Program-made: the position numbers and the translations under genes
Assembly: GCA_963715665.1 (NCBI GenBank)
Contig: OY970263.1
Location: 253,514 to 317,513 of the forward strand
DNA length: 64,000 nt
Source: an uncultured Gemmatimonadales bacterium
Lineage (GTDB): Bacteria; Gemmatimonadota; Gemmatimonadetes; Gemmatimonadales; GWC2-71-9
Reading direction: 5' to 3'
The notes under the pieces: model-generated
Seen by the model: only the letters and a program-made list of their open reading frames with translations
Database searches by the model: none
Told to the model about the DNA's origin: nothing
Part shown: one piece after another, positions 682 through 54,965 of the stretch
How positions within the stretch are numbered: the stretch's first letter is position 1
Layout: each line of letters begins with the position of its first letter

Positions 682-984
682 TCAGAACACCCAGCATTGA
701 ACGTCGAAGTCGCAACCTGGCCCGCCGGCGTTGCAAGACGCTTCGACGTCGTCGCGGCTGACACCACCGCAGCCATAGTCTTCGGCGAGAATGGCAACGC
801 AAGCGTCGTAAGGATCATCGGTTGCGCAGGCTTCCCACGCCACGGAGTCGTCTTCGTTCACGCATGCAGAGTAGAAGCCAAAATCGCAGGACGGCCAAGC
901 CGCGACGGCTCGAGAGGGGAGGGTCAGCCCACCGACCGCCACTACGATGGCGCTAAGCATGGTGACGACGGAGCGTTTCGACAT
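682..984 (-). CDS. secreted acidic Cys-rich small protein (precursor-like), family member 1
   Basis: 100-aa ORF with AAGGAGG 6 nt upstream of the ATG. N-terminal signal peptide (cleavage guessed after SRAVA). The 72-aa mature part has 8 Cys and many D/E. Confidence 0.6.
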   Translation of the reverse strand: MSKRSVVTMLSAIVVAVGGLTLPSRAVAAWPSCDFGFYSACVNEDDSVAWEACATDDPYDACVAILAEDYGCGGVSRDDVEASCNAGGPGCDFDVQCWVF

Positions 985-1085: not shown

Positions 1086-1769
1086 CTACGCTGATGTGGC
1101 GGACTTAATTGCGGCGATCACCAGTCGGTTCAATGACGCGGAATCGGGCGCCCCCGGAAGTCGGAGGCCGTTGATCAACAGTGTCGGTGTGCCGCGCCCA
1201 CCGAGCTTGCGCGCCGCCGCAGAGTCGATGTCGATGGCAATCACGGGCCCGGTTCGGGAGGCACATGTTGCGAAGGCTCCGGTATCAGCCACGCCCGCAT
1301 CTCGCGCGAAACTCATGAATGATTTGAGTCCCAGTGAATCCTGCTTCTGGTAGAGCGCGTCGTGATACGCTTCGAATTGCCCCTGCGCTCCAGCACATTC
1401 TGCCGCCCGGGCAGCCGGGTAGGCGAACCGATGATAGGAAAGTGGCCAGTTCCGGAAGACGACCTGAACGTCGTTTGGATACTTGTTCCGGATATACCGC
1501 AGCGGGCCGAGTTCGAACTTCCTGCACACCGGGCACTCGAAGTCCGCGAATTCGACGATTGTCACCGGGGCATTGGCCGGGCCCATCCGATGGCCGACCG
1601 CCGCATATTGGCGCCAGTCGGGGACCTGAACGGGCGTCGTTGGGCCCCGTGTAGCGTCGCCGGCCGGCGGCTTGTGAAGGGAGTCACGGACCCGCAGGGT
1701 GGTGACCACGACGGCGCAGGCAACCGCAACTACCATGAACGTCTGTTGGACGGCCTCACCAGGTTTCAT
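1086..1769 (-). CDS. membrane-anchored DsbA-family thiol:disulfide oxidoreductase
   Basis: C-terminal 227 aa of ORF 1086..2540. Internal ATG at 1769, followed by a TM helix (FMVVAVACAVVVTTL) and FADFECPVC (CxxC). Close paralogue of 40388..41065, which starts at the equivalent position. Confidence 0.75.
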   Translation of the reverse strand: MKPGEAVQQTFMVVAVACAVVVTTLRVRDSLHKPPAGDATRGPTTPVQVPDWRQYAAVGHRMGPANAPVTIVEFADFECPVCRKFELGPLRYIRNKYPNDVQVVFRNWPLSYHRFAYPAARAAECAGAQGQFEAYHDALYQKQDSLGLKSFMSFARDAGVADTGAFATCASRTGPVIAIDIDSAAARKLGGRGTPTLLINGLRLPGAPDSASLNRLVIAAIKSATSA

Positions 1770-2540
1770 CGTCTTCCCCCCGCGGCCGTTCTCCCGGATC
1801 TGGACGAGCCATCGTGCCCCCCCCCCCCGCCTCACCCGGGCCCGGATCCGCTCCTTGACCCGCCTGACAAGCCTGCGCTGTTCGGCCGGCGGACGGTCGG
1901 TGATGCCCAGCACATCGGCGTAGACCTTGGTCCTTCGCTCGCCCTCACCCATCAGCTCCCAGACCCTGTGCTCGGCGGCACTCCAGTTGGCTCGATGTTC
2001 CGCGCAGACGGTGGGAGTCCCGCCGGTGGTAATCACTTCCTGTAATACCTTCCCCGCCGGGCCGAGAAGTGCAACAACCCGGGTGTCAGCGTCCCGCCGA
2101 CGCCGGGCGTGTTCCGCGGCGTAACGCCACTCCCGGCGCTTGAGCCGGCCCTCGCGGCGCAGGCCGTTGAGCAGGTTCCGCCAGGCGGCCAGCCGCAGGT
2201 GGGCCATCACCATTCGGCCATCGGACGCGTTCGCGCCGGCCGGATGCTGGATATACGCCATCACGGCGTCAGTCGCGGCGTCCTGCGCGAGTGATGCGTC
2301 AATGCGCGGCCGATGGGCGGTCAGGTAGGTAACCAGCCACGGATGGACCATGGCCGCGAGTCGCTGGCCGACGTTGTCATCTCCGGCGAGCAGCTGCTGG
2401 TGCAGTTCGGCGATGCGGTCGAAGGCCGGCTCGGTCAACGGGCAACCGCGTCCTGTTGGTGTACGAGCAAGGTAATACGAGCGGAGCGTACGGATGTCAA
2501 GCGGAAGGTACACCAGGGGCACGATCCCCTTGGCAGCCAC
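1770..2540 (-). CDS. sigma-70/ECF-like regulator domain (in this assembly fused in frame to the DsbA-like ORF)
   Basis: N-terminal 257 aa of ORF 1086..2540. Region-2-like (DAATDAVMAYI...AAWRNLLNGLRRE) and region-4-like (VYADVLGITDRPPAEQRRLVRRVKERIRARV) patterns recognised by eye. There is no stop before the DsbA start, only a G12 tract. Confidence 0.45.
1817..1828. repeat. C12/G12 homopolymer tract at the sigma-like/DsbA junction
   Basis: Counted directly: 12 consecutive C on the + strand. Confidence 0.95.
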
Positions 2541-38363: not shown

Positions 38364-38693
38364 TCAGGCCCTCACGGGTCGCTGGCCCGGGTCGTTTGGG
38401 ATTGGCCGCTGAATTGAATCGCACGTGGAGTCCGGAGCGACGGCTCGTACATGCTTCTGGCGACGGTCTAGGCGTAAGCGCCTCGCTTCCATAGGGCGAA
38501 ACCCCGTTGGCGATTCATAACTGATCGGAACTGCAGCCCCTTTCGACACCGCAAGCCATAGTTGTCGGGAACTGTCCACTTGCCGTGCGATCACGATAGG
38601 AAACCGGTGACTTAGGTCACGCAGGATGATATCGCCGCAGCGAATACCGAGTGGCGGATAATCGGCGACTGCCAAATAGTACGTAGGTGGCAT
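38364..38693 (-). CDS. hypothetical protein (weak call)
   Basis: Only an ORF with no recognisable motif. Its start overlaps the reconstructed 5' end of the IS-split peptide gene on the other strand. Confidence 0.2.
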   Translation of the reverse strand: MPPTYYLAVADYPPLGIRCGDIILRDLSHRFPIVIARQVDSSRQLWLAVSKGAAVPISYESPTGFRPMEARRLRLDRRQKHVRAVAPDSTCDSIQRPIPNDPGQRPVRA

Positions 38694-38778
38694 TGAACCA
38701 TCCTAGAGGATCGGTGTGAGCTGACCCCGGTTTGGAGGACACACCATTTAGGTGTTTTCCTTCATCTGGGAGGTCAGG

Positions 38779-39072
38779 ATGCGGACCAGGCGGCAGTTCA
38801 GTCGGGAGTATAAGCTCGAGGCAGTACGGTTGGTGCTGGAGCGCGGGGTGAGTATCGCCCAGGCGGCTCGCGATCTGGATATCCACGTGAATTCCCTGCG
38901 CAAATGGATTGACGACTTCAAGCAGGATCCGGCGCACGCGTTCCCCGGCGAGGGGCGCCAGAAGCCCGACGATGCGGAAGTGACCCGGCTGCGGCGCGAG
39001 GTGGCGCAGTTGCGGATGGAGCGTGACATCCTAAAAAAAGCCGCGGCGTACTTCGCCAAGGAAGCGACGTGA
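38779..39072 (+). CDS. IS3-family transposase OrfA
   Basis: RRQFSREYKLEAVRLVLERGVSIAQAARDLDIHVNSLRKW...ILKKAAAYFAKE. Confidence 0.85.
   Translation: MRTRRQFSREYKLEAVRLVLERGVSIAQAARDLDIHVNSLRKWIDDFKQDPAHAFPGEGRQKPDDAEVTRLRREVAQLRMERDILKKAAAYFAKEAT
39033..39040 (+). promoter_or_regulatory. programmed -1 ribosomal frameshift site (A AAA AAA G)
   Basis: A7G lies in the orfA zero frame (CTA AAA AAA GCC). The -1 frame reads straight into orfB (…VKFRFVAKYR). Confidence 0.75.
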
Positions 39073-39935
39073 AGTTCCGCTTCGTGGCGAAGTACCGGAC
39101 CACGTGGCCAGTGCGAGCGATCTGCCAGGCCTTGGCGGTCTCGCCAAGCGGCTTTTACGCCTGGCTTCGGCGCGGGCCAAGTGCGCGCGCCCGCCGGCAT
39201 GCCGCGCTGATGCCAGCGATCCGCACCGCGTTTCTGCAGAGCGATCGCACCTACGGCGCCCACAAGATCCTCCGCGATGTGCGCGAGCTGGGGCACGCGT
39301 GCGGTCGGCATCAGGTCGCCCGGCTGATGCGGGCCCAGGCGCTGCGGGCCCGTCCGCGGCGCCGCGCGGTGCCGGTGGATCGCGGGGTGCGGCCGAGCAC
39401 GGCGCCGGCGGCGAATCTGCTCGCTCGGCAATTCGTCGCCACGGCGCCGAATCAGAAATGGGTCGCCGACTTCACGTACATCTGGGCGGGCGAGGGCTGG
39501 CTCTACGTCGCGGTCGTGCTGGATCTCTTCTCGCGCCGTGTGGTGGGTTGGGCGATGCAGCCGGCCATGACGACGCAGCTCGTCACCGACGCCCTGATGA
39601 TGGCGGTATGGCGGCGCGGACACCCGCAGGCGGTGCTGCATCACTCGGACCGGGGGAGTCAGTATACGAGCGACGACTTCCAGCGCCTGCTCCGCGATCT
39701 GGGGGTGACGTGCAGTCTGAGTCGGGCGGGCAATGTGTGGGACAATTCGGTGATGGAGAGTTTCTTCTCGATCCTGAAGACCGAGCGCACCGCGCGTCGC
39801 CAGTATCGCACGCGGGCCGACGCCCGGGCCGACATCTTCGACTACATCGAGCGCTTCTACAATCCGGTCCGTCGGCATTCGACGCTCGGCTATCTCAGTC
39901 CGGTGATGTATGAACGACAGGCAGAAGTAGCTTAG
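39069..39935 (+). CDS. IS3-family transposase OrfB (DDE)
   Basis: WVADFTYIW...LHHSDRGSQYTS...GNVWDNSVMESFF is a DDE integrase-like catalytic core with no internal stops. Confidence 0.9.
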   Translation: MKFRFVAKYRTTWPVRAICQALAVSPSGFYAWLRRGPSARARRHAALMPAIRTAFLQSDRTYGAHKILRDVRELGHACGRHQVARLMRAQALRARPRRRAVPVDRGVRPSTAPAANLLARQFVATAPNQKWVADFTYIWAGEGWLYVAVVLDLFSRRVVGWAMQPAMTTQLVTDALMMAVWRRGHPQAVLHHSDRGSQYTSDDFQRLLRDLGVTCSLSRAGNVWDNSVMESFFSILKTERTARRQYRTRADARADIFDYIERFYNPVRRHSTLGYLSPVMYERQAEVA

Positions 39936-40022
39936 GCAGGTGTCCACGAACTCGGGGTCAGCTCAGTTGCCCTATCGGCTGGCGTAGCACTGCTTGGTGC
40001 ACGCAACAAGCCAGCCTGGGCG

Positions 40023-40247
40023 TTGCCTGGCTGCGACCCCGGACCCAACGCCTACTGTGTCTATGGCGATTACACCTCGTGTGAAGATTCGGGCGGTGAT
40101 GCATCAGTGTACTGTACACAGCTACAGCAGTACACGGAGTGCGCCGGGCAAGGTTCCTTCGACTACGGTGAAGAGTGCGACGATAACAGTGCGGCGTGCA
40201 ATGGCAACGGTACCCTTGCCATTTGCGACTGGGATCCTTGGTCCTGA
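40023..40247 (+). CDS. acidic Cys-rich small protein, family member 2 (5' end split by the IS)
   Basis: 8 Cys in 74 aa. The frame is open upstream to the IS end (39966) and encodes VALSAGVALLGARNKPAWA, a signal-peptide remnant. No good start codon remains on this side of the IS. Confidence 0.55.
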   Translation: MPGCDPGPNAYCVYGDYTSCEDSGGDASVYCTQLQQYTECAGQGSFDYGEECDDNSAACNGNGTLAICDWDPWS

Positions 40248-40387: not shown

Positions 40388-41065
40388 ATGAGAATTCAGA
40401 CGGCCATCGGTGAATGGGTGTCGAGGGGGTTCGTCCTGATTGCGGTCACATGCGCCGTCGTCTCGACGGTTGTGAGCCTCCGAGGGAGTGGATCGCACAG
40501 CATCAATCTTCGGGCTCCCAAGCCGAAGGTCGTCGCAGATTGGACCCAATATGAAACCGGGGGACACCGAATAGGCCCGCAAGCAGCCAAGCTGACGATT
40601 GTCGAGTTTGCTGATTTTGAGTGCCCTGTGTGCGGTCAATTTGAAAACCGAGTACTGCCGGGGTTGAGGCGAGAATTTCCGAACACAATATCGGTCGTAT
40701 TTCGCGAATGGCCGCTCGCCCAACACCACCTCGCGTATCCGGCCGCGCGCGCGGCTGAATGCGCGGGAGAGCAGGGTCGCTTCCAAGAGTATCACGATCT
40801 CCTGTACGCTAAGCAAGACTCCTTGGGCCTACTAAGCTTCGTGGACTTTGCCATCGAAGCCGGTATCCCCGATACGGCGCGATTTGCGGCTTGCAATGCA
40901 CGCCCCGGTGCTGTTAGTGCAATCGATGCCGATGTCGCCGCAGCAAGGCGTCTTGGCGGCCGCGGCACGCCGACGCTGATCGTAAACGGGCTGTTGCTTC
41001 TTGGACTGCCCGACAGCGCGGATCTTCATGATATAGTCGCGGCTCAACTGAAGAAGGCCGGCTGA
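40388..41065 (+). CDS. membrane-anchored DsbA-family thiol:disulfide oxidoreductase, paralogue 2
   Basis: GGAGG upstream, a TM helix and FADFECPVC. Collinear with 1086..1769. Confidence 0.8.
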   Translation: MRIQTAIGEWVSRGFVLIAVTCAVVSTVVSLRGSGSHSINLRAPKPKVVADWTQYETGGHRIGPQAAKLTIVEFADFECPVCGQFENRVLPGLRREFPNTISVVFREWPLAQHHLAYPAARAAECAGEQGRFQEYHDLLYAKQDSLGLLSFVDFAIEAGIPDTARFAACNARPGAVSAIDADVAAARRLGGRGTPTLIVNGLLLLGLPDSADLHDIVAAQLKKAG

Positions 41066-41160: not shown

Positions 41161-42336
41161 ATGATCGGTGTGCGGGCCACAGTTGCACTTATTGGACTGC
41201 CCTCTGTGGTGCCCATGCATGGTATTGCGCAGGTCGAGCGGCACTTTGCGCTTGTCCCCGTTCTCACCATCGATAGCCCCGTGGTTGACTCTGCCATCGC
41301 GGGAGGCGTCTTCCAATCCAATGGGCAAGTTGTCCTCTTTCAGCCGCAACGTGACCGCATCATCGTTTTTGACGCCTCAGGTCATCAACTGGCGGAAACG
41401 CCGGGTCGAGGCGAAGGGAAGGGTGAGTTCATACGACTCAGCGCGGGTGGTCCCGCACCCGACGGCTTCTGGGCTTATGATGCGCTTCGAACCAGAGTCA
41501 CGCTCTTTAGGCTCAATGGATCGGTGGTTCGAAGCGTTTCGGTGCCGACCTTTAAGGCCGCGCCTTCGGGGTCGGACGCATCATTCGACATCCCAAACGG
41601 ACCATTCACATACGTCTCGGCGATTCCGTGGACGGGCGAATACCTTGTGAGCAGCGTGGTTGGGCCCGAGGCCTCGGTCCCGCGGACGTGGCGGCGCCCA
41701 GCAGGTGCCGTTCAAATCCTGGTAAATGCGTCTTCCGGTGGGATGATTCGGAACGTGGTCGCCTGGACACCGTTCGTCCGGTGCGACACGACGGTGAACG
41801 TCGCAAATGATGAGCCGATCCACACACGGATGCCATTTTGTGTACAACCCATCAGGGCCGTTGGCCCCGAAGGTCACGTTACCGCAATAGTTCAGGCAAT
41901 AATGACCGGAAGGGATAGCGTGGATTTCGTCACTACCTCGCTTGCGCCTCGCGGTGATACGGTTTTTGTGAGTCACGTTAGGGCTCGTGCCGTGCCGGTC
42001 ACGCCCCAGGCAAGAGATAGTGAAGTGACGCTGATGGGTCGAGGCAAGACTGCGGCGGAGATCGCAGCGCTTCGCCAATTGTGTCCCGCGTCGTATTCTG
42101 GACTGAAGTCGGTGGTGGTCGGCGCAGATGGTTCCGTGTGGATCGAGCAAGTAGCGGCGCGAGGCCGGCGAACATGGATTGTGCTCGACTCGAGCGGCGT
42201 CGAATGGGGACGGTCGACGCTCGCGAGAGAAATTCGGCCCAAATTTGTGGGGCTTGCGACGATGTGGGGTATTGAGGAGCACCTCAATGGCGGGAGTGTG
42301 CCAGTGCACTGGGTGATTCACCGTTCCGGGCAGTAG
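41161..42336 (+). CDS. six-bladed beta-propeller family protein, paralogue 2
   Basis: Signal-like N-terminus, IIVFDASGHQLAETPGRGEGKGEF and repeated blade-like segments. Confidence 0.65.
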   Translation: MIGVRATVALIGLPSVVPMHGIAQVERHFALVPVLTIDSPVVDSAIAGGVFQSNGQVVLFQPQRDRIIVFDASGHQLAETPGRGEGKGEFIRLSAGGPAPDGFWAYDALRTRVTLFRLNGSVVRSVSVPTFKAAPSGSDASFDIPNGPFTYVSAIPWTGEYLVSSVVGPEASVPRTWRRPAGAVQILVNASSGGMIRNVVAWTPFVRCDTTVNVANDEPIHTRMPFCVQPIRAVGPEGHVTAIVQAIMTGRDSVDFVTTSLAPRGDTVFVSHVRARAVPVTPQARDSEVTLMGRGKTAAEIAALRQLCPASYSGLKSVVVGADGSVWIEQVAARGRRTWIVLDSSGVEWGRSTLAREIRPKFVGLATMWGIEEHLNGGSVPVHWVIHRSGQ

Positions 42337-42340
42337 TCGT

Positions 42341-44481: not shown

Positions 44482-44730
44482 TCACCTGGCCACCTGGGGG
44501 GCAGGTGGCGGGTCGCAGCGCAGGAAGGCGAAGATCGCCTGGCGGGTTGCTGTCGCCGGGACCGTATTGCCCAACTCCCAGTTCCTTATGGTCGCCTTGT
44601 CCACGCCCATCTGGACCGCCACCTCTCGTTGCAGCAGCCCAAGGTCGATCCGCCGCGCTCTGATCTGGTCCCCTAAGTGCTTGATCTGCTTGGGGTAACC
44701 CGGCTTCGGGGTCGGTGCCGTCAGCCGCAA
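44482..44730 (-). CDS. XRE-family HTH protein, island-end copy 2
   Basis: 82 aa, a paralogue of 36154..36402 with scattered substitutions. Confidence 0.7.
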   Translation of the reverse strand: MRLTAPTPKPGYPKQIKHLGDQIRARRIDLGLLQREVAVQMGVDKATIRNWELGNTVPATATRQAIFAFLRCDPPPAPQVAR

Positions 44731-44746
44731 CGGTAGTTTGGCAACA

Positions 44747-44796
44747 AATCCCTGTCCCTGCGGCTACCTCGGCGACGCGACGCGGCAGTGCAGCTG
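44747..44796 (+). repeat. 50-nt comM core fragment (att-like)
   Basis: AATCCCTGTCCCTGCGGCTACCTCGGCGACGCGACGCGGCAGTGCAGCTG matches comM 30332-30381 with 2 mismatches, after which homology stops. Confidence 0.8.
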
Positions 44797-44947
44797 CGAT
44801 TGGCTGTCCCTGGTCGGCGAGACTATTCTTACCCAGGCGTACTAGCTCGCCAATGGCGTGGAACTGCAATTCCGGTAAGGATGGTCGTCCTGGGAGAGGC
44901 TGTTGAGTAGGCCACAGCGTGCTGGGCATACCAATAGAGTAGTTGGG

Positions 44948-46069: not shown

Positions 46070-46627
46070 TCAGGTGCCGGACTCGGCCTCGGTTACCGGG
46101 CGTGTCCCGGAATGGGGCTTTCGCCAGTCTTGACGATCTGACGGGGCACGGAATGTCGACTGGATGTGTCGGCGCGTCCCGATCGTCCATCCGCCTGCAC
46201 CGAAGGCACCGGGACGCGAAGAGACCTTGGGCGGAAGGATCGATGAGCGGGCTGATCTTTGGCGCGACCACAGCTGTCTCGGGACGGTCCCTCGCGTCCG
46301 GTGCCTCTCCCACGGGTTGAGCGGTTGACCCTTCAGGGTCAAGGACCACCCTTGGATAGCCGGAGCCCGGCGTACGGCCTCACTGGGCGTCGCGGGGGCG
46401 GGGAACGGGTCGTACCCCAGGAACGCGACGATCGCGGGATAGGCGGCCGTCATCGGGGTCGTGTGGCCCAACTCCCAGTTCGTCACCGTGGCCGTGTCCA
46501 CGCCGATCTGGGCCGCCACCTCTCGTTGCAGTAGCTCAAGATCAATCCGCCGAGCCCTGATCTCGTCCCCTAAGTGTTTGATCTGCTTGGGGTAACCCGG
46601 CTTCGGGGTGGGTGCCGTCAGCCGCAA
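46070..46627 (-). CDS. XRE-family HTH protein, island-end copy 3 (C-terminally extended ORF)
   Basis: The first ~75 aa are near-identical to copy 1. The remaining ~100 aa are not conserved and may be read-through of a lost stop. Confidence 0.55.
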   Translation of the reverse strand: MRLTAPTPKPGYPKQIKHLGDEIRARRIDLELLQREVAAQIGVDTATVTNWELGHTTPMTAAYPAIVAFLGYDPFPAPATPSEAVRRAPAIQGWSLTLKGQPLNPWERHRTRGTVPRQLWSRQRSARSSILPPKVSSRPGAFGAGGWTIGTRRHIQSTFRAPSDRQDWRKPHSGTRPVTEAESGT

Positions 46628-46643
46628 CGGCAGTTTGGCAACA

Positions 46644-47129
46644 AATCCCTGTCCCTGCGGCTACCTGGGTGACGCGACGCGGCAGTGCAGCTGTTCGCCG
46701 ATGGCGGTGCAGCGGTACCGCGCGAAGATCTCCGGGCCGTTGCTCGACCGGGTGGACATCCACCTGAGTGTCCCGCCGGTGGCCTACGACGATCTCACCG
46801 CGCGCAAGGCAGCGGAATCGAGTACCGTGGTGCGGCAGCGGGTGGAGGCGGCGCGGGCGCGGCAGCTGGAGCGGTTCCGGGAGGTGCGCGGGGTGTATGC
46901 CAATGCACACATGGGACCCAGGGAGTTGGCCAGGTTCGTGCGGACCGATGCCGCGACCGATGCGGTGCTGAAGCAGGCGATCGTCAAGCTGGGGCTGTCG
47001 GCGCGCGCGTATCACCGCGTGCTCAAACTGGCGCGGACGCTGGCGGATCTGGAGGGGGCGGCCGAGGTGGGGCCGCAGCATGTGGGGGAGGCGATCCAGT
47101 ACCGGGTGCTGGATCGGGGGGAGGGGTGA
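46644..47129 (+). pseudogene. comM: comM 3' fragment (copy 2)
   Basis: Matches comM 30332-30817. Homology continues downstream through the VNTR and the regulator to about 48060. Confidence 0.9.
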
Positions 47130-47228
47130 GGGCGGGGGCGGCACAGGGGCCACCGATCAACGCTTGACTGTCGGGCAACCTGGCTGTGAGGCCGGGTTGA
47201 CACGCGTTGCACCAGCCGGTACCGTTGA

Positions 47229-47273
47229 ACGCCACGCCACGCCACGCCACGCCACGCCACGCCACGCCACGCC
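47229..47273. repeat. pentanucleotide tandem repeat (ACGCC)x9
   Basis: Counted directly. The paralogous site at 30917-30946 has 6 units. Confidence 0.9.
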
Positions 47274-47290
47274 CCGCCGGCAGCGGTGTG

Positions 47291-48007
47291 ATGCGCTCGC
47301 GGGAGGTTGGTGGCGCTAAGCCGAGGCGTCGACCGATGACTGTGTGCTGCCTGCTACCCGGCGAACCGACGGCGATTGACGCGGGGCCGCCTGCACCGCG
47401 CCCGCTGGGCACAGTGTTCGTGGTTCCGGGCGGCGATGATGATCTGGCGCGAGTCGCCGAGTCCGTCGACCAGTGGCGCGCCAGTCCGTGGTGCCCGACG
47501 GTGCTGGTCGGCGCCGATAACGTTGCGCCTCGGACGCTCGACCTGCTGGTTCCCTCTGCAATGCATGTAACCCCGCTTCGCGGTGAGGTCTTGCAACCAG
47601 CCGCCGAAATCAGGAACGGGATCCGTCAGCGCCGGATTCCCGACGCCACCGATGTTGCCGCCTACATCGCGTTCAGGACGTCGCTCGGTCTGGCCAACCT
47701 GTTCTGCGACATACGCGATTCGGCGGGCGACGCCGACTTGCTGCGCCGATCGCTCCGGAGGTACGGAGCATGGCTGCCGCACGATTGGCGGGCACTCGGG
47801 AGTTGCCTCAAGCTGATCACACGGGCGGTCGCGGCCGGGCATGCGGAGGCCAGGGCGGCGGAGCTGGCGGGCGTGGACGTCAAGACGGTCTCGCGGTGGT
47901 GCCGTCGGTACTTCGGGCTGACCTGGCGGGAGCTCGTGGGAATGGACGCCTGGGAGGCGGCGCTGGAGGCCGCTCTGCGGGCGGGTGGATATGTAACAGA
48001 TCGCTGA
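47291..48007 (+). CDS. island-borne HTH regulator, copy 2
   Basis: Near-identical paralogue of 30958..31674, with the same start-codon uncertainty. Confidence 0.6.
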   Translation: MRSREVGGAKPRRRPMTVCCLLPGEPTAIDAGPPAPRPLGTVFVVPGGDDDLARVAESVDQWRASPWCPTVLVGADNVAPRTLDLLVPSAMHVTPLRGEVLQPAAEIRNGIRQRRIPDATDVAAYIAFRTSLGLANLFCDIRDSAGDADLLRRSLRRYGAWLPHDWRALGSCLKLITRAVAAGHAEARAAELAGVDVKTVSRWCRRYFGLTWRELVGMDAWEAALEAALRAGGYVTDR

Positions 48008-48060
48008 TCGGGGCGAAACTGGGCGAAAAGCAGCGAAAGGCACTGTTTTCTGGTATGGCG

Positions 48061-48122
48061 GAATACGGGGGATGGGTGAGTGTTGAGGGTGCGAGGCCGC
48101 GACAGTTTGAAGAATACGGGGG
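48061..48122 (+). promoter_or_regulatory. direct repeats GAATACGGGGG x2 upstream of peptide gene 3
   Basis: Identical 11-mers at 48061-48071 and 48112-48122, 51 nt start to start, just where homology with island copy 1 ends. Confidence 0.35.
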
Positions 48123-48279
48123 CTCGAGGTAGAACACGGGACATCTCGTGGCCCCGTGGGGCCATGATCTGCCGGTCGACCACAGGCCGGCGCAATAGGT
48201 CAAGGTTCCGGAGGAGCGGGCGTCGTCGGGTCAGAATGCCGTCGTCGGCTTCGTGGCGGAAACCCTATCAAGGAGGCAG

Positions 48280-48561
48280 ATGATGATTATCGTAAAGAGT
48301 GCTATCCGGTGTTTGGGAATGGCCGCGACGGTCGTTGCGCTCGCCGCCATTTCCGGTCAGTCGAGCCGACTGCGCGCCGAAACGGGCGCAACTTGCGATG
48401 CGTCGGACCCTTCGCATGCCTGCGTCAAGACGACCTTTGATCAAGGCGACCAGTGCTCTTCGCACTCGGGCTGCACAACATGTGAACCGCTCACCGGGTA
48501 CAATTGTGACCCCTATGGTAGCGGCGTATTCAAGGAAGATTGGAAGATGGACTGGGATTGA
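48280..48561 (+). CDS. secreted acidic Cys-rich small protein, family member 3
   Basis: AGGAGG at 48271-48276 before ATG 48280. 33-aa signal peptide (cleavage guessed after SRLRA) and a 60-aa mature part with 6 Cys. Confidence 0.65.
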   Translation: MMIIVKSAIRCLGMAATVVALAAISGQSSRLRAETGATCDASDPSHACVKTTFDQGDQCSSHSGCTTCEPLTGYNCDPYGSGVFKEDWKMDWD

Positions 48562-48587
48562 CCGATCAGGCGTTGAGTCACGCTACG

Positions 48588-48624
48588 GATACGCGGCCGA
48601 GCGATTGTGTACCGGCCGCGTATC
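48588..48624 (+). terminator. strong stem-loop after peptide gene 3
   Basis: GATACGCGGCCG, a 13-nt loop, then CGGCCGCGTATC (perfect 12 bp), 27 nt after the stop, with no U tract. Confidence 0.45.
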
Positions 48625-48945
48625 GGTGCGCCCGTCGCCGCAGCCGGGCCAATCGGCCTGCATTCGGATCACCACCGGCCGGAGTCCGCCGCATTGCGCG
48701 GCAATGGCGAAGCCCGCCAACGAGTTGCTGCGACCGAGTGCTGTACGACACCACCGGATCACTTTGGGTTCTGGAGTGCGTCACACAGCTGGCTCCTGCT
48801 CCGAGCAACATTCATTCGACAGTGCGGAGTCCGGCACTTTGTTCGCGCTGGGCGCAAGGTCCCTCGCCGGTAGCGGCAGCATGATGTGTGTTCTGGCGAC
48901 CGGATCCGACTTCGAGGGGTTCGGTAGCGATCTTCTCCTGGGCGA

Positions 48946-50124
48946 GTGGAAGAGGGATTGACCACGGTGGCGGATCAACGGGCGAGCACGTGCAGCGCGT
49001 GGGCAGAGGCAAGGGCTTGTTGTGACCCGTCGCCCGCATTGGCGTCGGCGAGCCGAAAGGCAACAGCCATTTCGGGTGTCATTCTTGTGCTTGGCCTGAT
49101 TGGTTGTGGGATGAGAGCCTCGGCCAGACTCCGGGACAGCTTGGATCCCACCGGTACTCGGCTGATACGGGATTCTGGTGAGGTCGATCTGGTCGGGGCG
49201 TTGGAGGTCACGGCGCCCATCATCGGAATGCCGCGTCACATGGCCACCAACGGCGCTTTCATGTGGCTGTACGATAGGGTCGGCGAACCCTATTTCCACC
49301 TTATCGATCTGTCTCACCATCGAATCGCGGTGTCATATGGCAGGTCTGGTGAGGGGCCAGGCGACTTCGCCTCAGTTGCCAGTCTGCAGGTCCGCCCCGG
49401 CGACACCTCGGGCGTGTGGGCGTACGATCCTCAGCTCCGGCGGCTGACACAACTTACGCCAAATCGAAACCGGGTTCGTGGCCGTACGATCACGGTCAGT
49501 GGCGGCCGGCGGCCGTACGATCTTCTGTGGCTCGATCGGGACCGGCTGTTGGGAATCAACGATTTGGACACGAACCGATTCCAGGTGTTCGACACATCCG
49601 GCAATCTGCTGAGGACGATGTCCGGGCCGCTGCTGGGATCTGATTCAATGCCATGGCAAGTACGTCGGGGTCTCTCAAGTGCGTTTGTTGCGTGTGTGGA
49701 TCCGGCAGGTGGGCGATTCGCCGTTCTATTTGTGGGGGCGGGGCGCATCGACATTCACGACACGTCGGGCGCGCTTGTCCGACACGCCGACGTGCCGTTT
49801 GTATCTGACGGTGAGTTCCATCGGGACCGGGACGGCCGCTACAGTTTCGGCACGCGATGGCGCTATTACGCCGATTGTGCTGCCACGACGCGATACCTAT
49901 ATGCCCTCTTTGCGGGCTATCGGACCGATGTTCCTGGTGCCTCTCGCGACGTCGCGGCGACACATGTCCAGGTGTTCGACTGGAACGGCGCCCTACGCGG
50001 GGAGTACCATCTTGACAGGCCAATGGGAAACATCGCAGTGGTGGGCGACACGCTGCTATACGCCGCCAGCATGATCACTCCGGGTGTCTATCGGTATCGG
50101 CTTCCAGTGCGCGATGGCCGTTGA
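48946..50124 (+). CDS. six-bladed beta-propeller family lipoprotein, paralogue 3
   Basis: Lipobox (LGLIGCG), GRSGEGPGDF and blade-like repeats (RFQVFDTSGNLL, RIDIHDTSGALV, HVQVFDWNGALR). Confidence 0.7.
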   Translation: MEEGLTTVADQRASTCSAWAEARACCDPSPALASASRKATAISGVILVLGLIGCGMRASARLRDSLDPTGTRLIRDSGEVDLVGALEVTAPIIGMPRHMATNGAFMWLYDRVGEPYFHLIDLSHHRIAVSYGRSGEGPGDFASVASLQVRPGDTSGVWAYDPQLRRLTQLTPNRNRVRGRTITVSGGRRPYDLLWLDRDRLLGINDLDTNRFQVFDTSGNLLRTMSGPLLGSDSMPWQVRRGLSSAFVACVDPAGGRFAVLFVGAGRIDIHDTSGALVRHADVPFVSDGEFHRDRDGRYSFGTRWRYYADCAATTRYLYALFAGYRTDVPGASRDVAATHVQVFDWNGALRGEYHLDRPMGNIAVVGDTLLYAASMITPGVYRYRLPVRDGR

Positions 50125-50184
50125 GCCCACAGGAGCGTATGGTTGCGGGGCTGTCGCATTACCCTCGTACGGAGTGAAAGAGCG

Positions 50185-50886
50185 ATGACGAACCTCAGGC
50201 GAGTTCTCGATTGGACGACGGTGATTCTATGCGTCGCCGCAGGCGCAATCGCGATACGGATCGTCAGCAATGGCATGCCTACGGTGCAGGCCGGCCCAGC
50301 CCAGGCGCTCCCCTCGGCGTACGCGTCTGAGAGCCAGGTTCCGATTGGTGATGACACGATGCTGGCTGGGCGGCTACGGTTGGGTGCCGATGGTGTGCCC
50401 GTCACAATCACCGTGTTCGCAAACTTCTACTGCAGCCATTGCGCGGATCTCGATCCGGTCTTGCGGGATCTCGTGACGCGGTATCCGGATCAGGTGGCGA
50501 TAGTCATAAAGCACTTCGTGCCGATCGCGATTCGTGCGCAATTGACAGCAGACCTCGCGGCCGAGTGTGCCGCCGATCAAGGCAAGTTCCCAGAATTCGA
50601 CCGTGCGTTCTTCGCGTACGGCGCCAAATCGGGCTTGCCAGACGAGTGGCGTCGGATCGGCGTGGACATCGGCATCCACGATCTTGCTCAATACGACCGA
50701 TGCGTGCGGTCGCAACGACATCTCGCGGCGGTGGTGCGAGACACGCGCGAGGCGGCCCGGCTTGGCGTCGATCGGACGCCAATCGAGTTCGTCAACGGGC
50801 GACGCATCGTCGGAGTTCAAGCGGAAGCCGTCTACGACACGGTCATCGCCGCGGCCCTGGATCGGGTCGGGCGGAACGCCACATGA
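50185..50886 (+). CDS. membrane-anchored DsbA-family oxidoreductase, paralogue 3
   Basis: TM helix (VILCVAAGAIAIRIV), FANFYCSHC (CxxC) and a DsbA-like helical insert. ATG 50185 has GGAG upstream. Confidence 0.75.
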   Translation: MTNLRRVLDWTTVILCVAAGAIAIRIVSNGMPTVQAGPAQALPSAYASESQVPIGDDTMLAGRLRLGADGVPVTITVFANFYCSHCADLDPVLRDLVTRYPDQVAIVIKHFVPIAIRAQLTADLAAECAADQGKFPEFDRAFFAYGAKSGLPDEWRRIGVDIGIHDLAQYDRCVRSQRHLAAVVRDTREAARLGVDRTPIEFVNGRRIVGVQAEAVYDTVIAAALDRVGRNAT

Positions 50887-52172
50887 ATCGCAGGCTCTCG
50901 ACGATGGTGGGACGTAGACGTGCCCGGGTGGCCGGGATCCGGACATCGCCGACCCTGGCGATGCGCACCACCTGCATGTCGATGTTTTGTATCGTGATTC
51001 CTACGGCGCTGGTGGCGCAAGACCTAGTCCGGCAAGACAGCGCTGGGGTGGAGATCGTGGTGAACCATGTTGCTGCCGACGGCATGGCGCCGGCGTTTGA
51101 GGTCGCCAAGGCGCCCGCTGCGGTATTCCGTTTGTCAACCGACGTTTCTGACATCCGTGGAGCGTTCCAATTTGCGGGCGGCGGAGTCTTGGTGGCTGAC
51201 GGTGCGTCGGAACGTGTAATCTATTTCGATTCAGCGGGCAAACGGCAATTTGTGGTAGGCAATGGACGATCAGCGGATGGTGCCGGGTCGTTCGATGCCA
51301 TAATGGGAGTGGTTGCGGCTGGCCCCGGAGCGGCTGCGGTATGGGACGCAGCGCGAAACCGTCTGACCGTACTGAATGCGAGAGGAACGGTGCTGGATCG
51401 CGAATATCTTGGTGCGCCGCCGATGGGGGCGACACCGATTGGCCCGATGCGCAGCCGATACCTGATAGTGGGGCAGCTTACGGCCGACCGGTACGTGGCT
51501 GCGGTAGAAGTGCCGTATCGCGACAAGACGACGACGCGAGTCGGATTCGACAGTGTCGCAATCGTGCTGTTGACCAAGCAAGGGCATCGGATCCGAACCG
51601 ATCAACACCTACGGTTCGGAGAATACTTCGAATTCAGGGATTCGGGTAATGTCGCAGCGATCAGCGGACCGGTACCTCTCGCCCATCTCGGCCATGTTGC
51701 AGTCAGTCAGAAGTCATGGTATCTGACACGCGGCACAACATGGGAAATCGAAAAGTGGTCGGCGAACGGAAGGCTTGTCTCGCTGTTCCGAATTACTCGA
51801 CCGATCGAGAGACTGCGGACGGACTTGTGGAGGCAGGTGAGTGCGGACCTACTCGATTCGGTGGCGCCGCCCCGGAGATCGCTGTATGAGCGAGCGCTGG
51901 CATGGATACCCCGGGAACAGACCGTGCCCGCATATGTGGGCTTGCTTGGCGACACCCATGGTCGTATTTGGGCGGAGTTGTGGACGAGGCCGAATCGTCC
52001 GTCGGAGTGGGACGTATTTCAGAGTGATGGCACGTATTTGGGATCTGTGGAAATGCCACCGTCTTGTCAAGTGGTGCAGGTCGGTGATAGCGCAATGTTA
52101 TGCGTCCGCGAGGGTGGCAACGACACGGCCGAACAGGTCAGGTCGTACGCTGTCCATCATGTCAGGAACTAG
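50883..52172 (+). CDS. six-bladed beta-propeller family protein, paralogue 4
   Basis: ATG 50883 overlaps the DsbA stop (ATGA). Signal-like segment (MFCIVIPTALVAQ) and VIYFDSAGKRQFVVGNGRSADGAGSF. Confidence 0.65.
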   Translation: MNRRLSTMVGRRRARVAGIRTSPTLAMRTTCMSMFCIVIPTALVAQDLVRQDSAGVEIVVNHVAADGMAPAFEVAKAPAAVFRLSTDVSDIRGAFQFAGGGVLVADGASERVIYFDSAGKRQFVVGNGRSADGAGSFDAIMGVVAAGPGAAAVWDAARNRLTVLNARGTVLDREYLGAPPMGATPIGPMRSRYLIVGQLTADRYVAAVEVPYRDKTTTRVGFDSVAIVLLTKQGHRIRTDQHLRFGEYFEFRDSGNVAAISGPVPLAHLGHVAVSQKSWYLTRGTTWEIEKWSANGRLVSLFRITRPIERLRTDLWRQVSADLLDSVAPPRRSLYERALAWIPREQTVPAYVGLLGDTHGRIWAELWTRPNRPSEWDVFQSDGTYLGSVEMPPSCQVVQVGDSAMLCVREGGNDTAEQVRSYAVHHVRN

Positions 52173-52362
52173 CGCGTTGGTGTCGGATCACGCTGCCCCT
52201 TCCGGAGCCTCGGTTGGTCAAGTCCTCAAGACTGGAAGTCGATCCTGGCGAGTAGCGCCACCCCTCCAACGCCGCCGGTGCCGCACCAGCCAGCGGTCGC
52301 TACGGCCCCTCGCTTCTCCTCCCGCCAATTGACCCGTACGGTACCGCGGCGTACCGTACCCG

Positions 52363-53430
52363 ATGCGAAAGCAGCTCTTCCGGGGCCTCGTCAGCACCGT
52401 TGCGCCGCTAGTCGTCGGCTGCCACCGCGCCACTCCGACCGACGCTCAGGCGTTTCAGCCATTCGACGCAGCCCGCTGTGATACCGCCGTGGCTTCCGGA
52501 CGGTCCGAAGACGGAATGATCGGGATGGCCGCCCCGGGGCCCCACGGCGTCCTGGCATGGAGCGCCGGCAGGCGCCCCGCGACGATCCACCTCGACGCCG
52601 GCGGACATGACGCCACGGCGGGCCGTAACGGTGAGGGGCCGGGCGAATTCCGTTCGATCGGTGTCGCGTGGTGGGTCGGTGATACGCTCTGGGTGAGCGA
52701 CTATCGGCTGGGCCGGTCCGTTGCCTTTACCGCCGACGGACGGTACGCCGGCACGCTGACGCCACCGATGCCGGGAAGCTGGGTCCGCACCGCGTCCGGA
52801 CGATCGGTGGGCGTCGCGCAGACATCCGTGTCCATCCCCGACGTCCGGATCCTGGCGTTCGGTCCGGATCAACGACTCGATACGCTCGCCGACGTCGCAG
52901 CACCCGACACATTTCGCGCCGGCGATCCGCACAACGCCGGGCCGTTCACGATGCGGCTCGCCCTGGCGGCATGGACGCCGGACGGAGCGCGTTGGTGCGT
53001 CATCGTCCCGGGGCAGGCATCCGACCTGCACCTCCAGTGCCTGGATCCGGCCGGTAATGCGGTACTCGACACCACCGTAACGCTTCCGCCGAGGGCGGTC
53101 ACACAGGAGGAGTACGACACAGTCATGGCCTCGATGGTCAAGGGGCTCGATCCCATCGCCGCGGCGAGGCTGCGGGCCGATACCCCGAGGCCGCCCTTCT
53201 TTGCCGCGGCGTTCGAGGCCCTGATGGACAACCACGATCGCTTCTGGGTTCTCCGGTCCACCCTCGGCGAACGTCCCGAGGTCTGGACCGAGTTGTCACC
53301 GACCGGCGCGGTGGTCCGTACAATGACCCTGCCGGCAGCGATGCACCTGCTCGCCGCGCGCGACGATCTCCTCTATCTCCGGGCGGCGCAGGATGACGGG
53401 TTCCAGACGTTGCTGCGGTGCCAGCTGTGA
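52363..53430 (+). CDS. six-bladed beta-propeller family lipoprotein, paralogue 5
   Basis: Lipobox (PLVVGC) and GRNGEGPGEFRSI. It has the same tail pattern as the other paralogues. Confidence 0.65.
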   Translation: MRKQLFRGLVSTVAPLVVGCHRATPTDAQAFQPFDAARCDTAVASGRSEDGMIGMAAPGPHGVLAWSAGRRPATIHLDAGGHDATAGRNGEGPGEFRSIGVAWWVGDTLWVSDYRLGRSVAFTADGRYAGTLTPPMPGSWVRTASGRSVGVAQTSVSIPDVRILAFGPDQRLDTLADVAAPDTFRAGDPHNAGPFTMRLALAAWTPDGARWCVIVPGQASDLHLQCLDPAGNAVLDTTVTLPPRAVTQEEYDTVMASMVKGLDPIAAARLRADTPRPPFFAAAFEALMDNHDRFWVLRSTLGERPEVWTELSPTGAVVRTMTLPAAMHLLAARDDLLYLRAAQDDGFQTLLRCQL

Positions 53431-53543
53431 ACTCGCCCCTGCCGCCTTGCGCGCGGTGCCGCTCCCGCCGTATCGTCGTGCCGACCGTCGCCTGACCGCC
53501 TGAGAACGCGCCGCAACCCGCGGCACTCCCCCCGGAGCCCGCC

Positions 53544-54887
53544 ATGTCCGAATCGGCTGCCACTCCCTCGACCCCGGGTGCCGCCTCCGCCGCACCCGCC
53601 GGCCCGTTCTTCCTGGTCTGCATCGGCGGCGCCGACCTCGGCAAGCGGCTGGCGCTCACCCCGGGCGCGCTGCTGGTCGGCACCTCCCACGAGTCCAACC
53701 TGCTGAGCGCCGACCCCGGCGTCACTGAGCGCTTCGCCACGCTCCACTGGGATGGCGCCGTGCTGCACGTCAAGGCGCTGGGCAAGTCGCTGCCATTCGT
53801 CGACGGCCATTCCGGTGCCGAGCTGACCGTCACCGGCTCGCAACAGCTGCGTCTCGGCACGTCGGTCTGGCGCGTCGAGGCGCCGCACGCCGCCAACGCC
53901 GGCGGCGTGATGGACTTTGTCAGCCGGATCGGCGATCAGCTGTCGAGCGCCGCGGGCATCGAAACGCCCGGCGAATGGAACGCCCGCGAGATGTTCGCCG
54001 ACGCCACCAAGAAGCACAGCGACGAGGACGTCGAGCGCTACTTCACGGTCGGCACGCCGGAAACCACGCCGAGCCTCCAGCAGATCGACGCGTCGTGGCC
54101 CAGGCCATGGATGTTCCTGCGCGTCTTTGCCCTGTCGCTGGTGCTCTATCTCGGCTTTGTGTACACCTGGGAGAAGTTCGACAACGAGAACCTGATTCCC
54201 GGGCTGATCATGATCGGCGCGGTGGCGGTGCCGCTGTCGCTGCTGGTGTTCTTCTTCGAAGTGAACGTGCCTCGCAACGTCTCGCTCTACCAGGTCATCA
54301 AGCTGCTGCTGGTGGGCGGGCTGCTGTCGATCGCGGTGGCACTGGTGTTCTTCGACGTGACCCACCTCGACAACTGGCTCGGCGCGGCGAGCGCCGGCAT
54401 CATCGAGGAGACCGCCAAGGCGCTGACGCTGCTGCTGGTGGTGCGGAAGCCGCGCTATCGCTGGACGCTCAATGGCCTGCTGCTCGGTGCCACGGTGGGC
54501 ACCGGGTTTGCCGTCTTCGAGTCGGCGGGATATGCGCTGCGGATCGGTCTCGAGAACGGCGGCCCCGCGATGCTGGCCAACATCCAGCAGCGCGGTTTCC
54601 TCAGCATCCTGGGCGGCCACGTGCTGTGGACCGGGCTGGTCGGCGCGGCGCTCTGGCGGGTGCGCGGCGACCGGCCGTTCCGGAAGGAGATGTGGTTCGA
54701 CCCCCGGTTCCTCAGGGTGCTGGTGATCTGCATGCTGATGCACATGCTGTGGAACTTCGACGGGCTCTCGCTCCCGTTCGACGGCAAGTACATCCTGCTC
54801 GGCGCGGCGGCGTGGTTGCTGGTGCTGGGGATGATCCAGGCGGGGCTCAAGGAGGTGCGGGCGGCGCAGGCCGCGGCAACTGCGTGA
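53544..54887 (+). CDS. FHA domain fused to PrsW-family intramembrane protease
   Basis: N-terminal FHA-like region (GKRLALTPGALLVGTSHESNLLSADPGVTERFATL). The C-terminal multi-TM part has EETAK, FAVFESAGY and GGHVLWTG motifs typical of PrsW. Confidence 0.7.
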   Translation: MSESAATPSTPGAASAAPAGPFFLVCIGGADLGKRLALTPGALLVGTSHESNLLSADPGVTERFATLHWDGAVLHVKALGKSLPFVDGHSGAELTVTGSQQLRLGTSVWRVEAPHAANAGGVMDFVSRIGDQLSSAAGIETPGEWNAREMFADATKKHSDEDVERYFTVGTPETTPSLQQIDASWPRPWMFLRVFALSLVLYLGFVYTWEKFDNENLIPGLIMIGAVAVPLSLLVFFFEVNVPRNVSLYQVIKLLLVGGLLSIAVALVFFDVTHLDNWLGAASAGIIEETAKALTLLLVVRKPRYRWTLNGLLLGATVGTGFAVFESAGYALRIGLENGGPAMLANIQQRGFLSILGGHVLWTGLVGAALWRVRGDRPFRKEMWFDPRFLRVLVICMLMHMLWNFDGLSLPFDGKYILLGAAAWLLVLGMIQAGLKEVRAAQAAATA

Positions 54888-54965
54888 GGGCGTGTGGGGG
54901 ATTTCCCGCTGGCGTCGTCGCCCGGATCGGTTCATGATGCATGGAATCCGATCCCGGGAGGAATC

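Follow-up and report, generated by a model that had tools for sequence, protein, structure and literature searches.

The subject of this work is cassette 3, a gene cluster at 47.2-53.4 kb on the + strand of a 64,000-nt stretch of DNA from an uncultured Gemmatimonadales bacterium; this whole stretch is called the window below. The features of cassette 3 follow each other in the order regulator, peptide gene, hairpin, propeller 1, DsbA-like protein, propeller 2 and propeller 3. The G+C content (GC) of the window is ~68%, but lower (59-64%) at ~30-53 kb, and cassette 3 is the right end of this low-GC stretch. A first-pass annotation had described here six open reading frames (ORFs), an AGGAGG sequence, an acidic peptide with six Cys residues, a hairpin, a CSHC motif and two propeller motifs. 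All of these were borne out by the ORF listing and by reading of the sequence, with the six ORFs present on the + strand at the positions claimed or close to them. The features are as follows:

47207..48007, + strand: regulator-like gene, conserved left flank (ORF; in-frame alternative ATG at 47291)
48097..52321, no strand assigned: hypervariable four-gene core (peptide, propeller 1, DsbA, propeller 2), delimited by comparison with L008, a Gemmatimonadales metagenome-assembled genome (MAG) syntenic with the window
48271..48276, + strand: AGGAGG ribosome-binding site of the peptide gene, read in the sequence
48280..48561, + strand: peptide precursor, 93 aa (signal peptide 48280-48378, mature part 48379-48558)
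48588..48624, + strand: perfect 12-bp hairpin, arms 48588-48599 and 48613-48624, 3' of the peptide gene
49039..50124, + strand: propeller 1, predicted TolB_like/NHL six-bladed lipoprotein (ORF open from 48946, likely start TTG 49039)
50185..50886, + strand: membrane-anchored DsbA-like protein, CSHC (ORF open from 50143, ATG 50185)
50883..52172, + strand: exported propeller 2 (start codon sharing bases with the stop of DsbA, ATGA)
52363..53430, + strand: propeller 3, lipoprotein, conserved right flank (lipobox VVGC, GRNGEGPGEF)

The peptide gene has ATG codons at 48280 and 48283, and its stop codon ends at 48561; the database copy of the peptide (P0001) is 92 aa long. The mature peptide consists of 60 aa, contains 6 Cys and has a pI of 4.2 and a net charge of -8. 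A word-indexed search with the peptide returned P0001 itself only, no family was matched in Pfam and NCBIfam, and a DNA-pattern scan of JGI metagenomes for the peptide motif CDP[YVF]GSG[VI][DFN] yielded no relatives. Seven clusters among 5.8 billion proteins were obtained in a profile search, and an exhaustive hidden Markov model search detected 35 representatives among 1.84 billion, which makes this a rare peptide family. In Gemmatimonadales MAGs the contexts of propeller-1 homologues contained uncalled small homologous ORFs in the identical position (for example ...CDSSDAFHACVTT...GGGCTTC...YRCDPYGSGVNQLDWAME), and in the relatives' loci L002 and L003 the peptide genes had been left uncalled by gene callers. 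Lack of conservation of the small ORF had been named in the first-pass annotation among the outcomes that would refute its reading; the ORF is conserved both in sequence and in position (35 representatives, syntenic homologues), and, judged by this conservation, it is a genuine gene founding a rare family.

Members of the family are 88-146 aa long, most of them ~90 aa, with the exception of P0043 (2088 aa), in which eight stretches gave local matches only. An alignment of 33 sequences of small members (A6) displayed six invariant Cys, one invariant Arg in the signal peptide, Ala at position -1, the motif C-x-T-C and a conserved aromatic residue close to the C-terminus; the C-termini themselves are variable, and no sequence ends in Gly. 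The signal peptide is of the Sec type, ends in L-x-A and carries a single Arg, thus no twin-arginine motif. The AlphaFold2 model of the peptide is compact and all-beta (pLDDT 86), and Foldseek found no match to it in the PDB. The six invariant Cys are consistent with three disulfides in such a predicted fold.

Two ideas about the nature of the peptide were dropped. Assignment to the double-glycine-leader (class II) bacteriocins was rejected, as the leader is of the Sec type and no transporter or peptidase family was matched in the cassette. The possibility, by analogy with the colicins, that the C-terminal DPxGSG..DW tail enters the propeller as a TolB box was weakened by the AlphaFold2 model, in which the C-terminal segment forms one of the strands within the compact fold. 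A separate observation concerns residues C-SSHSG-C-TT-C (48454-48486): the corresponding motif of the family, sC-xAGx-C-xT-C, is similar to SCRAGSCSTC, the cluster-binding loop in plant-type [2Fe-2S] ferredoxins, a likeness that is probably due to convergence.

The protein that the first-pass annotation had called a thioredoxin-fold protein matched Thioredoxin_4 (5e-16, 59.6 bits) and DSBA (7e-13, 49.3 bits), in both cases passing the cut-off. It has the CSHC motif, an R-T-P loop and an N-terminal hydrophobic anchor (transmembrane segment), and its nearest solved structures are the DsbA-like proteins 7unn and 4pwo. By these sequence features it is a DsbA-like thiol-disulfide oxidoreductase and a putative oxidase.

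Propeller 1, with the motif GRSGEGPGDF, matched the Pfam family TolB_like PF15869 (4.2e-9, 36.6 bits against a cut-off of 29.2), and its homologues carry precomputed PF15869 annotation. The ORF and the motif were as claimed in the first-pass annotation; the start, however, is likely to be TTG 49039 rather than 48946, since the lipoprotein signal MASASRKATAISGVILVLGLIGC works from the TTG alone. In the AlphaFold2 model of propeller 1 (pLDDT 75, pTM 0.74) the top Foldseek matches were the NHL domain of Brat, the peptide-amidating lyase PAL (3fvz, ranking second), Thin and TRIM71, at E ~1e-11 to 1e-12, TM-scores of 0.5-0.7 and identities of 11-16%. The model thus points to a six-bladed beta-propeller of the NHL type. 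Propellers 2 and 3 had no Pfam match; in profile-profile comparison (hhalign) propeller 2 was linked at 93.9% to the family of propeller 1 and at 96.9% to propeller 3. Homologues of propeller 2 were found downstream of DsbA in L002 (identical to L005), L003, L006, L008, L009, L072 and L073. The propellers appear to fall in the uncharacterised PF15869/PF17170 family and in no known enzyme family, which answers another of the checks proposed earlier. No invariant or near-invariant His was present in a 15-sequence propeller alignment, and a 10-sequence set had one near-invariant His; the conserved residues look structural, with no conserved metal or catalytic site apparent in the alignments. Two Cys outside the lipobox (Cys250 and Cys311) are invariant in alignment A1, including homologues from loci without DsbA. 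No plasmid-borne propeller-1 homologues were found.

The recurrence of the cassette was studied in 18 genome and 45 metagenome loci reached via the propeller, plus several more reached via the peptide; all were scanned in six frames with purpose-built profiles. The same gene order was found in ~12 independent loci: peptide, propeller 1 and DsbA, in some cases followed by propeller 2, occur in L002 (= L005), L003, L006, L008, L009, L012, L016, L025, L027, L072 and L073. Of these, L002 (= L005), L003, L006, L008, L009, L012, L016 and L027 had been seeded by the propeller, whereas L025, L072 and L073, with the order peptide-TolB_like-Thioredoxin_4, had been seeded by the peptide; another peptide-seeded locus (L074) has DsbA and then the peptide. 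Linkage within the cassettes is tight, neighbouring ORFs overlapping or abutting each other, and the gene of the mini-protein always adjoins those of a membrane-anchored DsbA-like protein and of TolB_like/NHL propeller lipoproteins. Toxin-antitoxin modules and insertion sequence (IS) elements are neighbours of the relatives' cassettes.

Wherever DsbA-like and propeller genes are neighbours, the locus also contains a small ORF for an exported Cys-rich product. Where this ORF does not belong to the family of the cassette-3 peptide, it belongs to four other Cys-rich families, with 4 Cys in L050/L054, 5 in L052 (two copies), 7 in L053 and 5 in L055, or it is the 8-Cys ORF of L019, which has the order of cassette 2. 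Conversely, DsbA and Cys-rich peptide are both absent from six distinct Gemmatimonadales-type propeller loci, L007 (= L004), L010, L011, L013, L014 and L015. There is likewise no DsbA between the propellers of L075, a locus from the window's own genome that was checked for DsbA only. The window itself contains three DsbA paralogues, each adjoining a small exported Cys-rich ORF. Since peptide and DsbA co-occur, while the invariant propeller Cys persist without DsbA, DsbA follows the Cys-rich peptide and not the propeller. The co-occurrence of peptide, DsbA and propeller genes, which the first-pass annotation had proposed to examine, is far above chance (~12 loci).

Two of the loci contain what may be remnants. 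In L013 (7779-10199) homologues of propellers 1 and 2 are each broken over two frames, with neither peptide nor DsbA, and the region looks like a decaying cassette. In L073 (7239-9044) a second DsbA-like sequence, of the type found in cassettes 1 and 2, is missing its N-terminal part in this frame and continues, without a change of frame, into the propeller gene that follows. Either decay of a second cassette or a frameshift in the assembly could account for it; a DsbA-propeller fusion is not claimed, as the sequence appears to be a DsbA remnant in frame with the downstream gene.

Comparison with L008 revealed where the cassette varies. Nucleotide similarity between the window and L008 is ~82-83% over 46340-48096 and 52322-54888, and there is none between these segments. 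Flanking proteins were 96% (comM 3' end), 84% (PrsW-like), 82% (propeller 3) and 70% (regulator) identical, in contrast to 47% for propeller 1, 39% for DsbA, 35% for the peptide and 28% for propeller 2. The GC of the core is 57-63% and that of the flanks 68-69%. Moreover, the peptide of the window is 55-56% identical to the peptides of the non-syntenic loci L002 and L003, but only 38% to that of the syntenic L008. Divergence is correlated within the module (propeller-DsbA r = 0.84, peptide-propeller r = 0.59). Taken together, the divergence confined to the core, its lower GC, the closeness to the L002 and L003 peptides and the correlated divergence indicate that a co-adapted set of four genes has been replaced while the flanks were conserved, as in a swappable cassette whose genes are apparently transferred together by horizontal exchange. 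The first-pass annotation had missed that the core is such a hypervariable, exchanged module, lying in an island adjacent to comM.

Small exported peptides are also encoded beside homologous propellers in other phyla. Among 35 propeller loci with sufficient upstream sequence, a same-strand small ORF with a signal peptide ended within 800 nt upstream of the propeller in 18, compared with 4 of 35 in the opposite-strand control. In low-GC loci of the human-gut type, NVEALA (PF14055, 4e-12) was encoded directly upstream of a TolB_like propeller (PF15869, 3e-24). This adjacency, verified in L058, L062, L063, L066, L067, L068 and L070, confirms what the first-pass annotation had stated for Bacteroidota. 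The pairs of NVEALA with TolB_like (PF15869) or DUF5128 (PF17170) share with cassette 3 the propeller family and the position of a small exported peptide gene directly before it. In contrast, NVEALA peptides are unrelated in sequence to the cassette-3 peptide, have ~2 Cys, and are encoded in loci without a DsbA gene; they consist of a conserved leader-like part and a variable tail. The window peptides did not match PF14055, and the NVEALA motif was found only in the low-GC loci. No paper on the function of the NVEALA/propeller pair was found in the literature searched. This functionally uncharacterised pair is the nearest relative by homology, and by gene order and propeller family the window cassettes appear to be the Gemmatimonadota version of a broader peptide-propeller pairing, with DsbA added.

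These observations suggest that cassette 3 is a copy of a self-contained, separately regulated envelope module composed of a peptide, its own oxidase and cognate propellers, an account to which we give slightly under even confidence as a whole. A precursor of ~90 aa with a Sec-type signal peptide would be converted to an acidic mini-protein of ~60 aa, whose three disulfides would be formed in the periplasm by the DsbA-like oxidase of the cassette; the co-occurrence pattern makes this role of DsbA highly probable. The folded mini-protein would act by binding the cognate propeller lipoprotein or lipoproteins, which would be partners rather than enzymes. Adjacency across phyla and lack of a conserved catalytic site make such binding somewhat more probable than its opposite, and the best fold neighbours of the propeller include binding modules (Brat and TRIM NHL domains). 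Peptide and propeller would then form a polymorphic ligand-partner system used between cells. Because of the hypervariability, the horizontal exchange, the several cassettes per genome, the orphan propeller pairs and the location in an accessory island, where IS elements and toxin-antitoxin modules are neighbours, we tentatively propose that peptide and propeller function in antagonism coupled to immunity, or in recognition between strains, although here our confidence falls distinctly short of even. Of the possible versions, the likeliest has a bacteriocin-like peptide and propellers as immunity or receptor proteins; the alternative is a system of strain recognition or surface variation.

Several points weigh against this proposal. 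Membrane-active bacteriocins are mostly cationic, whereas the peptides described here are acidic throughout the family (median pI 4.4). No exporter, leader peptidase or lysis function was among the families matched in the cassette (Pfam, NCBIfam, PADLOC), so that no gene of the cassette would account for the exit of a Sec-exported peptide from a diderm cell. We know of no precedent for a propeller serving as an immunity protein. In L029 and L049, small Cys-containing ORFs lie beside propellers with no DsbA within the available sequence, and the correlated divergence is equally expected under plain co-inheritance.

A wider generalization is doubtful, though worth stating: propeller lipoproteins of the TolB_like/NHL type and the small exported peptides encoded upstream of them might constitute an unrecognised class spanning phyla, in which the peptide, as a toxin or recognition tag, would serve as polymorphic ligand, its cognate propellers would provide immunity or reception, and DsbA would have been recruited for disulfide-knotted ligands. 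The class would take in the 6-Cys family, at least two other Cys-rich families and the NVEALA peptides of gut Bacteroidales.

If the propellers were enzymes, the cassette could encode a periplasmic maturation pathway similar to those of peptides that are made on ribosomes and modified after translation (RiPPs), in which the propellers modify or process the DsbA-folded exported peptide to yield a signal or an antibiotic. Consistent with this, PAL ranks second among the fold matches to propeller 1, genes for small peptides stand immediately before homologous propellers in several phyla, NVEALA peptides have a conserved leader-like part and a variable tail, and the several different propellers of a cassette could represent several maturation steps. 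The first-pass annotation had pointed to PAL as an NHL propeller; as a mechanistic analogy this was not supported. The zinc site of PAL consists of three conserved His, accompanied by a catalytic Tyr and Arg. The cassette propeller shares the six-bladed NHL fold with PAL, Brat and TRIM71, but its identity to PAL is 14% (11-16% across PAL, Brat and TRIM71), it has no invariant His from which a three-His zinc site could be built, and its best matches are as often binding modules (Brat, TRIM) as enzymes; PAL-like catalysis was therefore rejected. Furthermore, the model predicts a compact folded domain over the full length of the peptide and not a leader with a core, the peptide C-termini are unconserved without a Gly end, and no recognised RiPP enzyme family was matched in the cassette. 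Maturation of this kind appears improbable.

A low probability is likewise assigned to an envelope complex or enzyme resembling methylamine dehydrogenase, with a housekeeping or metabolic function, in which the mini-protein would be the small subunit, the propeller the large subunit, and DsbA would take the role of MauD. The triad does parallel the logic of the mau cluster, which encodes the small multi-disulfide exported polypeptide MauA, the propeller MauB and the CxxC thioredoxin-fold protein MauD (bioRxiv 10.64898/2026.03.05.709764), and both the tight linkage of overlapping or abutting ORFs and the conserved aromatic residue close to the peptide C-terminus would fit. However, no MauG, MauE or other cofactor-maturation gene was matched among the six cassette proteins, and the propeller is of the six-bladed NHL type, not seven-bladed; on these grounds membership in the quinoproteins of this type was rejected. 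MauB has seven blades, MauG is required for the tryptophan tryptophylquinone cofactor, MauA exceeds the mini-protein in size and contains six disulfides, and there is no sequence relationship between the two systems. In addition, close homologues of the propeller exist without peptide and DsbA, and extreme allelic divergence with horizontal swapping at a single chromosomal site would be unusual for a metabolic enzyme.

That unrelated envelope genes and general-purpose DsbA paralogues merely happen to be neighbours in a recombination-prone island, the small ORF having no specific link to them, is very improbable. Propeller paralogues and MacB-type permeases are indeed abundant in the genome, and the island has been rearranged by IS elements and repeats, but the order is repeated in ~12 independent loci including distant peptide-seeded ones, DsbA presence tracks that of the Cys-rich peptide, and the four genes were replaced together, so that the synteny appears largely to have refuted chance association. 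We give equally little credence to an exported metal or iron-sulfur mini-protein whose C-x4-C-x2-C binds a metal or cluster while the thioredoxin-fold protein maintains the thiol redox state: the family consensus resembles the loop of plant-type [2Fe-2S] ferredoxins, and ferredoxins are the sole PDB sequence matches, but these are weak, local and not significant (E = 0.056), there is no Pfam match, the missing twin-arginine motif makes a route for cofactor-loaded export unlikely, the spacing to the fourth ligand is 7-8 residues instead of the x29 of C-x4-C-x2-C-x29-C, the peptides invariably have an even number of Cys (6 or 8) as for disulfides, the partner is of the DsbA type, and the predicted fold, for which Foldseek returned no match, does not resemble that of ferredoxins. 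Because of the E value of the local match and the wrong ligand spacing, identity with a plant-type [2Fe-2S] ferredoxin was rejected.

As stated in the first-pass annotation, no described system seems to have this composition: neither a paper nor a family model for the combination of peptide, propeller and DsbA was found in the searchable literature and family databases. Nor did we find papers on the function of TolB_like PF15869, DUF5128 PF17170, BF3164 or NVEALA, or relevant ones on NHL in connection with RiPPs or Gemmatimonadota with DsbA. By logic, the closest systems appear to be the mau cluster and the sublancin-type clusters with Bdb oxidoreductases. The sublancin cluster (sunA-sunT-bdbA-sunS-bdbB) is Gram-positive, encodes a dedicated ABC transporter/peptidase, a glycosyltransferase and the small membrane immunity protein SunI, and has no propellers. 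Cassette 3 resembles it in that the gene of a disulfide peptide stands next to that of its own oxidoreductase, but no ABC transporter/peptidase, glycosyltransferase or SunI family was matched in the cassette. The sublancin/glycocin clusters of Bacillus are described as encoding a disulfide-containing secreted antimicrobial peptide beside its own thiol-disulfide oxidoreductases (PMC4336743, PMC6391423). Bufferins are small Cys-rich RiPP metallophore precursors with a Sec signal, which act in the periplasm (PMC11626156). Their clusters need the multinuclear non-heme iron-dependent oxidase MNIO (DUF692) and DUF2063 enzymes, whereas cassette 3 matches neither of these, nor the bufferin precursor family. 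In the AssT-DsbL-DsbI system of uropathogenic Escherichia coli, dedicated Dsb components are linked to a propeller protein. Similarly, DsbI of Helicobacter is described as a DsbB-like protein with a beta-propeller (PMC4597128). Common to these systems and cassette 3 is an extra Dsb component genetically tied to a beta-propeller; the difference is that in the AssT and DsbI systems the propeller is a substrate or part of the oxidase, whereas in cassette 3 DsbA follows the Cys-rich peptide.

Should the proposed module be real, its peptides would represent a new family of exported bacterial proteins that are small and rich in disulfides and whose fold lacks a detectable PDB relative, and work on it would open a first way to the function of the large TolB_like/DUF5128 propeller families, as yet unstudied, and of the NVEALA peptides of gut Bacteroidales. 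To our knowledge almost no competition systems have been characterised in Gemmatimonadota, and if the peptide and propellers are indeed ligand and partner, they would constitute a new route of interbacterial antagonism or recognition in soil members of the phylum. Stable disulfide-knotted peptides might also be obtained from the cassettes, and the swap of the four-gene core between conserved flanks beside comM offers a clean natural experiment on cassette exchange.

At the left flank of the cassette, the first-pass annotation had placed a helix-turn-helix (HTH) regulator at 47291-48007. The ORF and the in-frame ATG at 47291 are present, but the HTH matches, located in the C-terminal part, are weak and below threshold (HTH_28 2e-3, DUF6003 7.5e-4). 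The regulator is 90% identical to a second copy at 30895-31674, and homologues of it are encoded before the peptide in L008 (70% aa identity), L009 and L012; in most loci an HTH regulator of variable family lies directly upstream of the cassette. The 101-nt region of the hairpin has a folding energy of -48.4 kcal/mol (z = -1.9). Since a T-tail is missing, the hairpin is not a classical terminator, and it gave no terminator call; a pattern scan detected no classical terminator or promoter patterns above chance level, and no Rfam families were found in 46-54 kb. The spacer between the peptide gene and propeller 1 (48562-49038) is unusually long (477 nt), without coding signature or Rfam match, unlike in the relatives, where the two genes abut or overlap.

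The peptide-DsbA pairing recurs twice in the window, as the first-pass annotation had noted for 682-2540 and 39966-44185, with corrections in both cases. The features of cassettes 1 and 2 are:

682..984, - strand: cassette-1 peptide precursor, intact ORF of 100 aa with signal peptide, 8 Cys, pI 4.05
1086..2540, - strand: cassette-1 DsbA-like protein, CPVC (Thioredoxin_4 4.6e-23, thioredoxin domain in residues 316-473)
38687..38716, + strand: 5' fragment of the cassette-2 peptide gene (start and first 10 codons, translation *VALNHPRGSV), abutting the IS3 inverted repeat
38717..39965, + strand: IS3-family insertion sequence with 26-nt terminal inverted repeats (TGAGCTGACCCCGG...) and transposase ORFs 38752-39072 and 39069-39935
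39966..40247, + strand: 3' part of the cassette-2 peptide gene (remaining signal peptide and 8-Cys acidic mature part, pI 4.05)
40388..41065, + strand: cassette-2 DsbA-like protein, CPVC, 57% identical to the cassette-1 DsbA
41161..42336, + strand: cassette-2 propeller, with BLAST links to other propellers

Peptide, DsbA and propeller are all present in cassette 2, in this order, as also in L019; position 39966, however, is not a start codon but the first base after the IS3 element, which sits in the signal-peptide codons of the peptide gene between the flanking codons GTG and GTT. In cassette 1 both peptide and DsbA were found, but in the opposite order, with DsbA preceding the peptide on the minus strand; there is no propeller inside the window, and any would lie past its edge. 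The cassette-1 DsbA ORF has an in-frame N-terminal extension of 240 aa (1821-2540) with a coding-like GC pattern and no Pfam match. By eye, and unconfirmed, this extension is similar to an extracytoplasmic function (ECF) sigma factor (region-4-like HTH), and it may be a fusion or an unrecognised upstream gene. Peptides 1 and 2 have Cys number and spacing in common, and no sequence relation of either to the family of peptide 3 was detectable.

The low-GC stretch begins within the 3' end of a full-length comM/yifB gene, and this 3' end is present in three copies of 93-95% identity (30332-30864, 36419-36952 and 46644-47176), which delimit units of the island. Regulator genes that are nearly identical to each other come after the first and the third copy (30332-31763 being similar to 46644-48095), and an XRE-type gene precedes the second and third. 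The cassettes of L008 and L012 likewise adjoin comM 3' ends. No integrase was seen in the island. None of nine island proteins matched a PADLOC defence-system profile, and a known anti-phage defence system was rejected on this basis. A minus-strand gene of the XRE-type HTH class (44482-44730, 46070-46627) is part of a region, including the sequence around it, that is repeated three times at 86-93% identity (35917-36468, 44247-44796 and 46340-46693), each repeat lying beside a comM 3' fragment or a cassette boundary. Pieces of another IS3-type transposase (33311-34236: orfA-like 33311-33631, truncated orfB-like 33778-34236) sit between an orphan exported-protein gene and a DUF5128/NHL propeller gene (34569-35699). 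The ORFs 31750-32847 (365 aa), 42341-44185 (614 aa) and 44903-46060 (385 aa) had no match in Pfam, NCBIfam or PADLOC; for the last of them assignment as a propeller was considered and rejected (hhalign 3%).

Efflux genes were seen near several cassettes. Resistance-nodulation-division (RND) genes (membrane-fusion protein, AcrB-type pump and outer-membrane factor) flank the cassettes in the Gemmatimonadales-type loci L003 (13310-21137) and L073 (1-3759), and RND efflux genes also lie on both sides of the Bacteroidales NVEALA locus L063 (1-2228 and 8303-12584). Since RND and MacB-type pumps are common in these genomes, their proximity supports no conclusion, though MacB-type pumps could in principle carry periplasmic peptides across the outer membrane. 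In the window, an array of diverged MacB_PCD/FtsX permease paralogues, with repeat families of 67-72% identity, occupies 14557-19629, and a further copy of 813 aa is encoded at 61188-63629.

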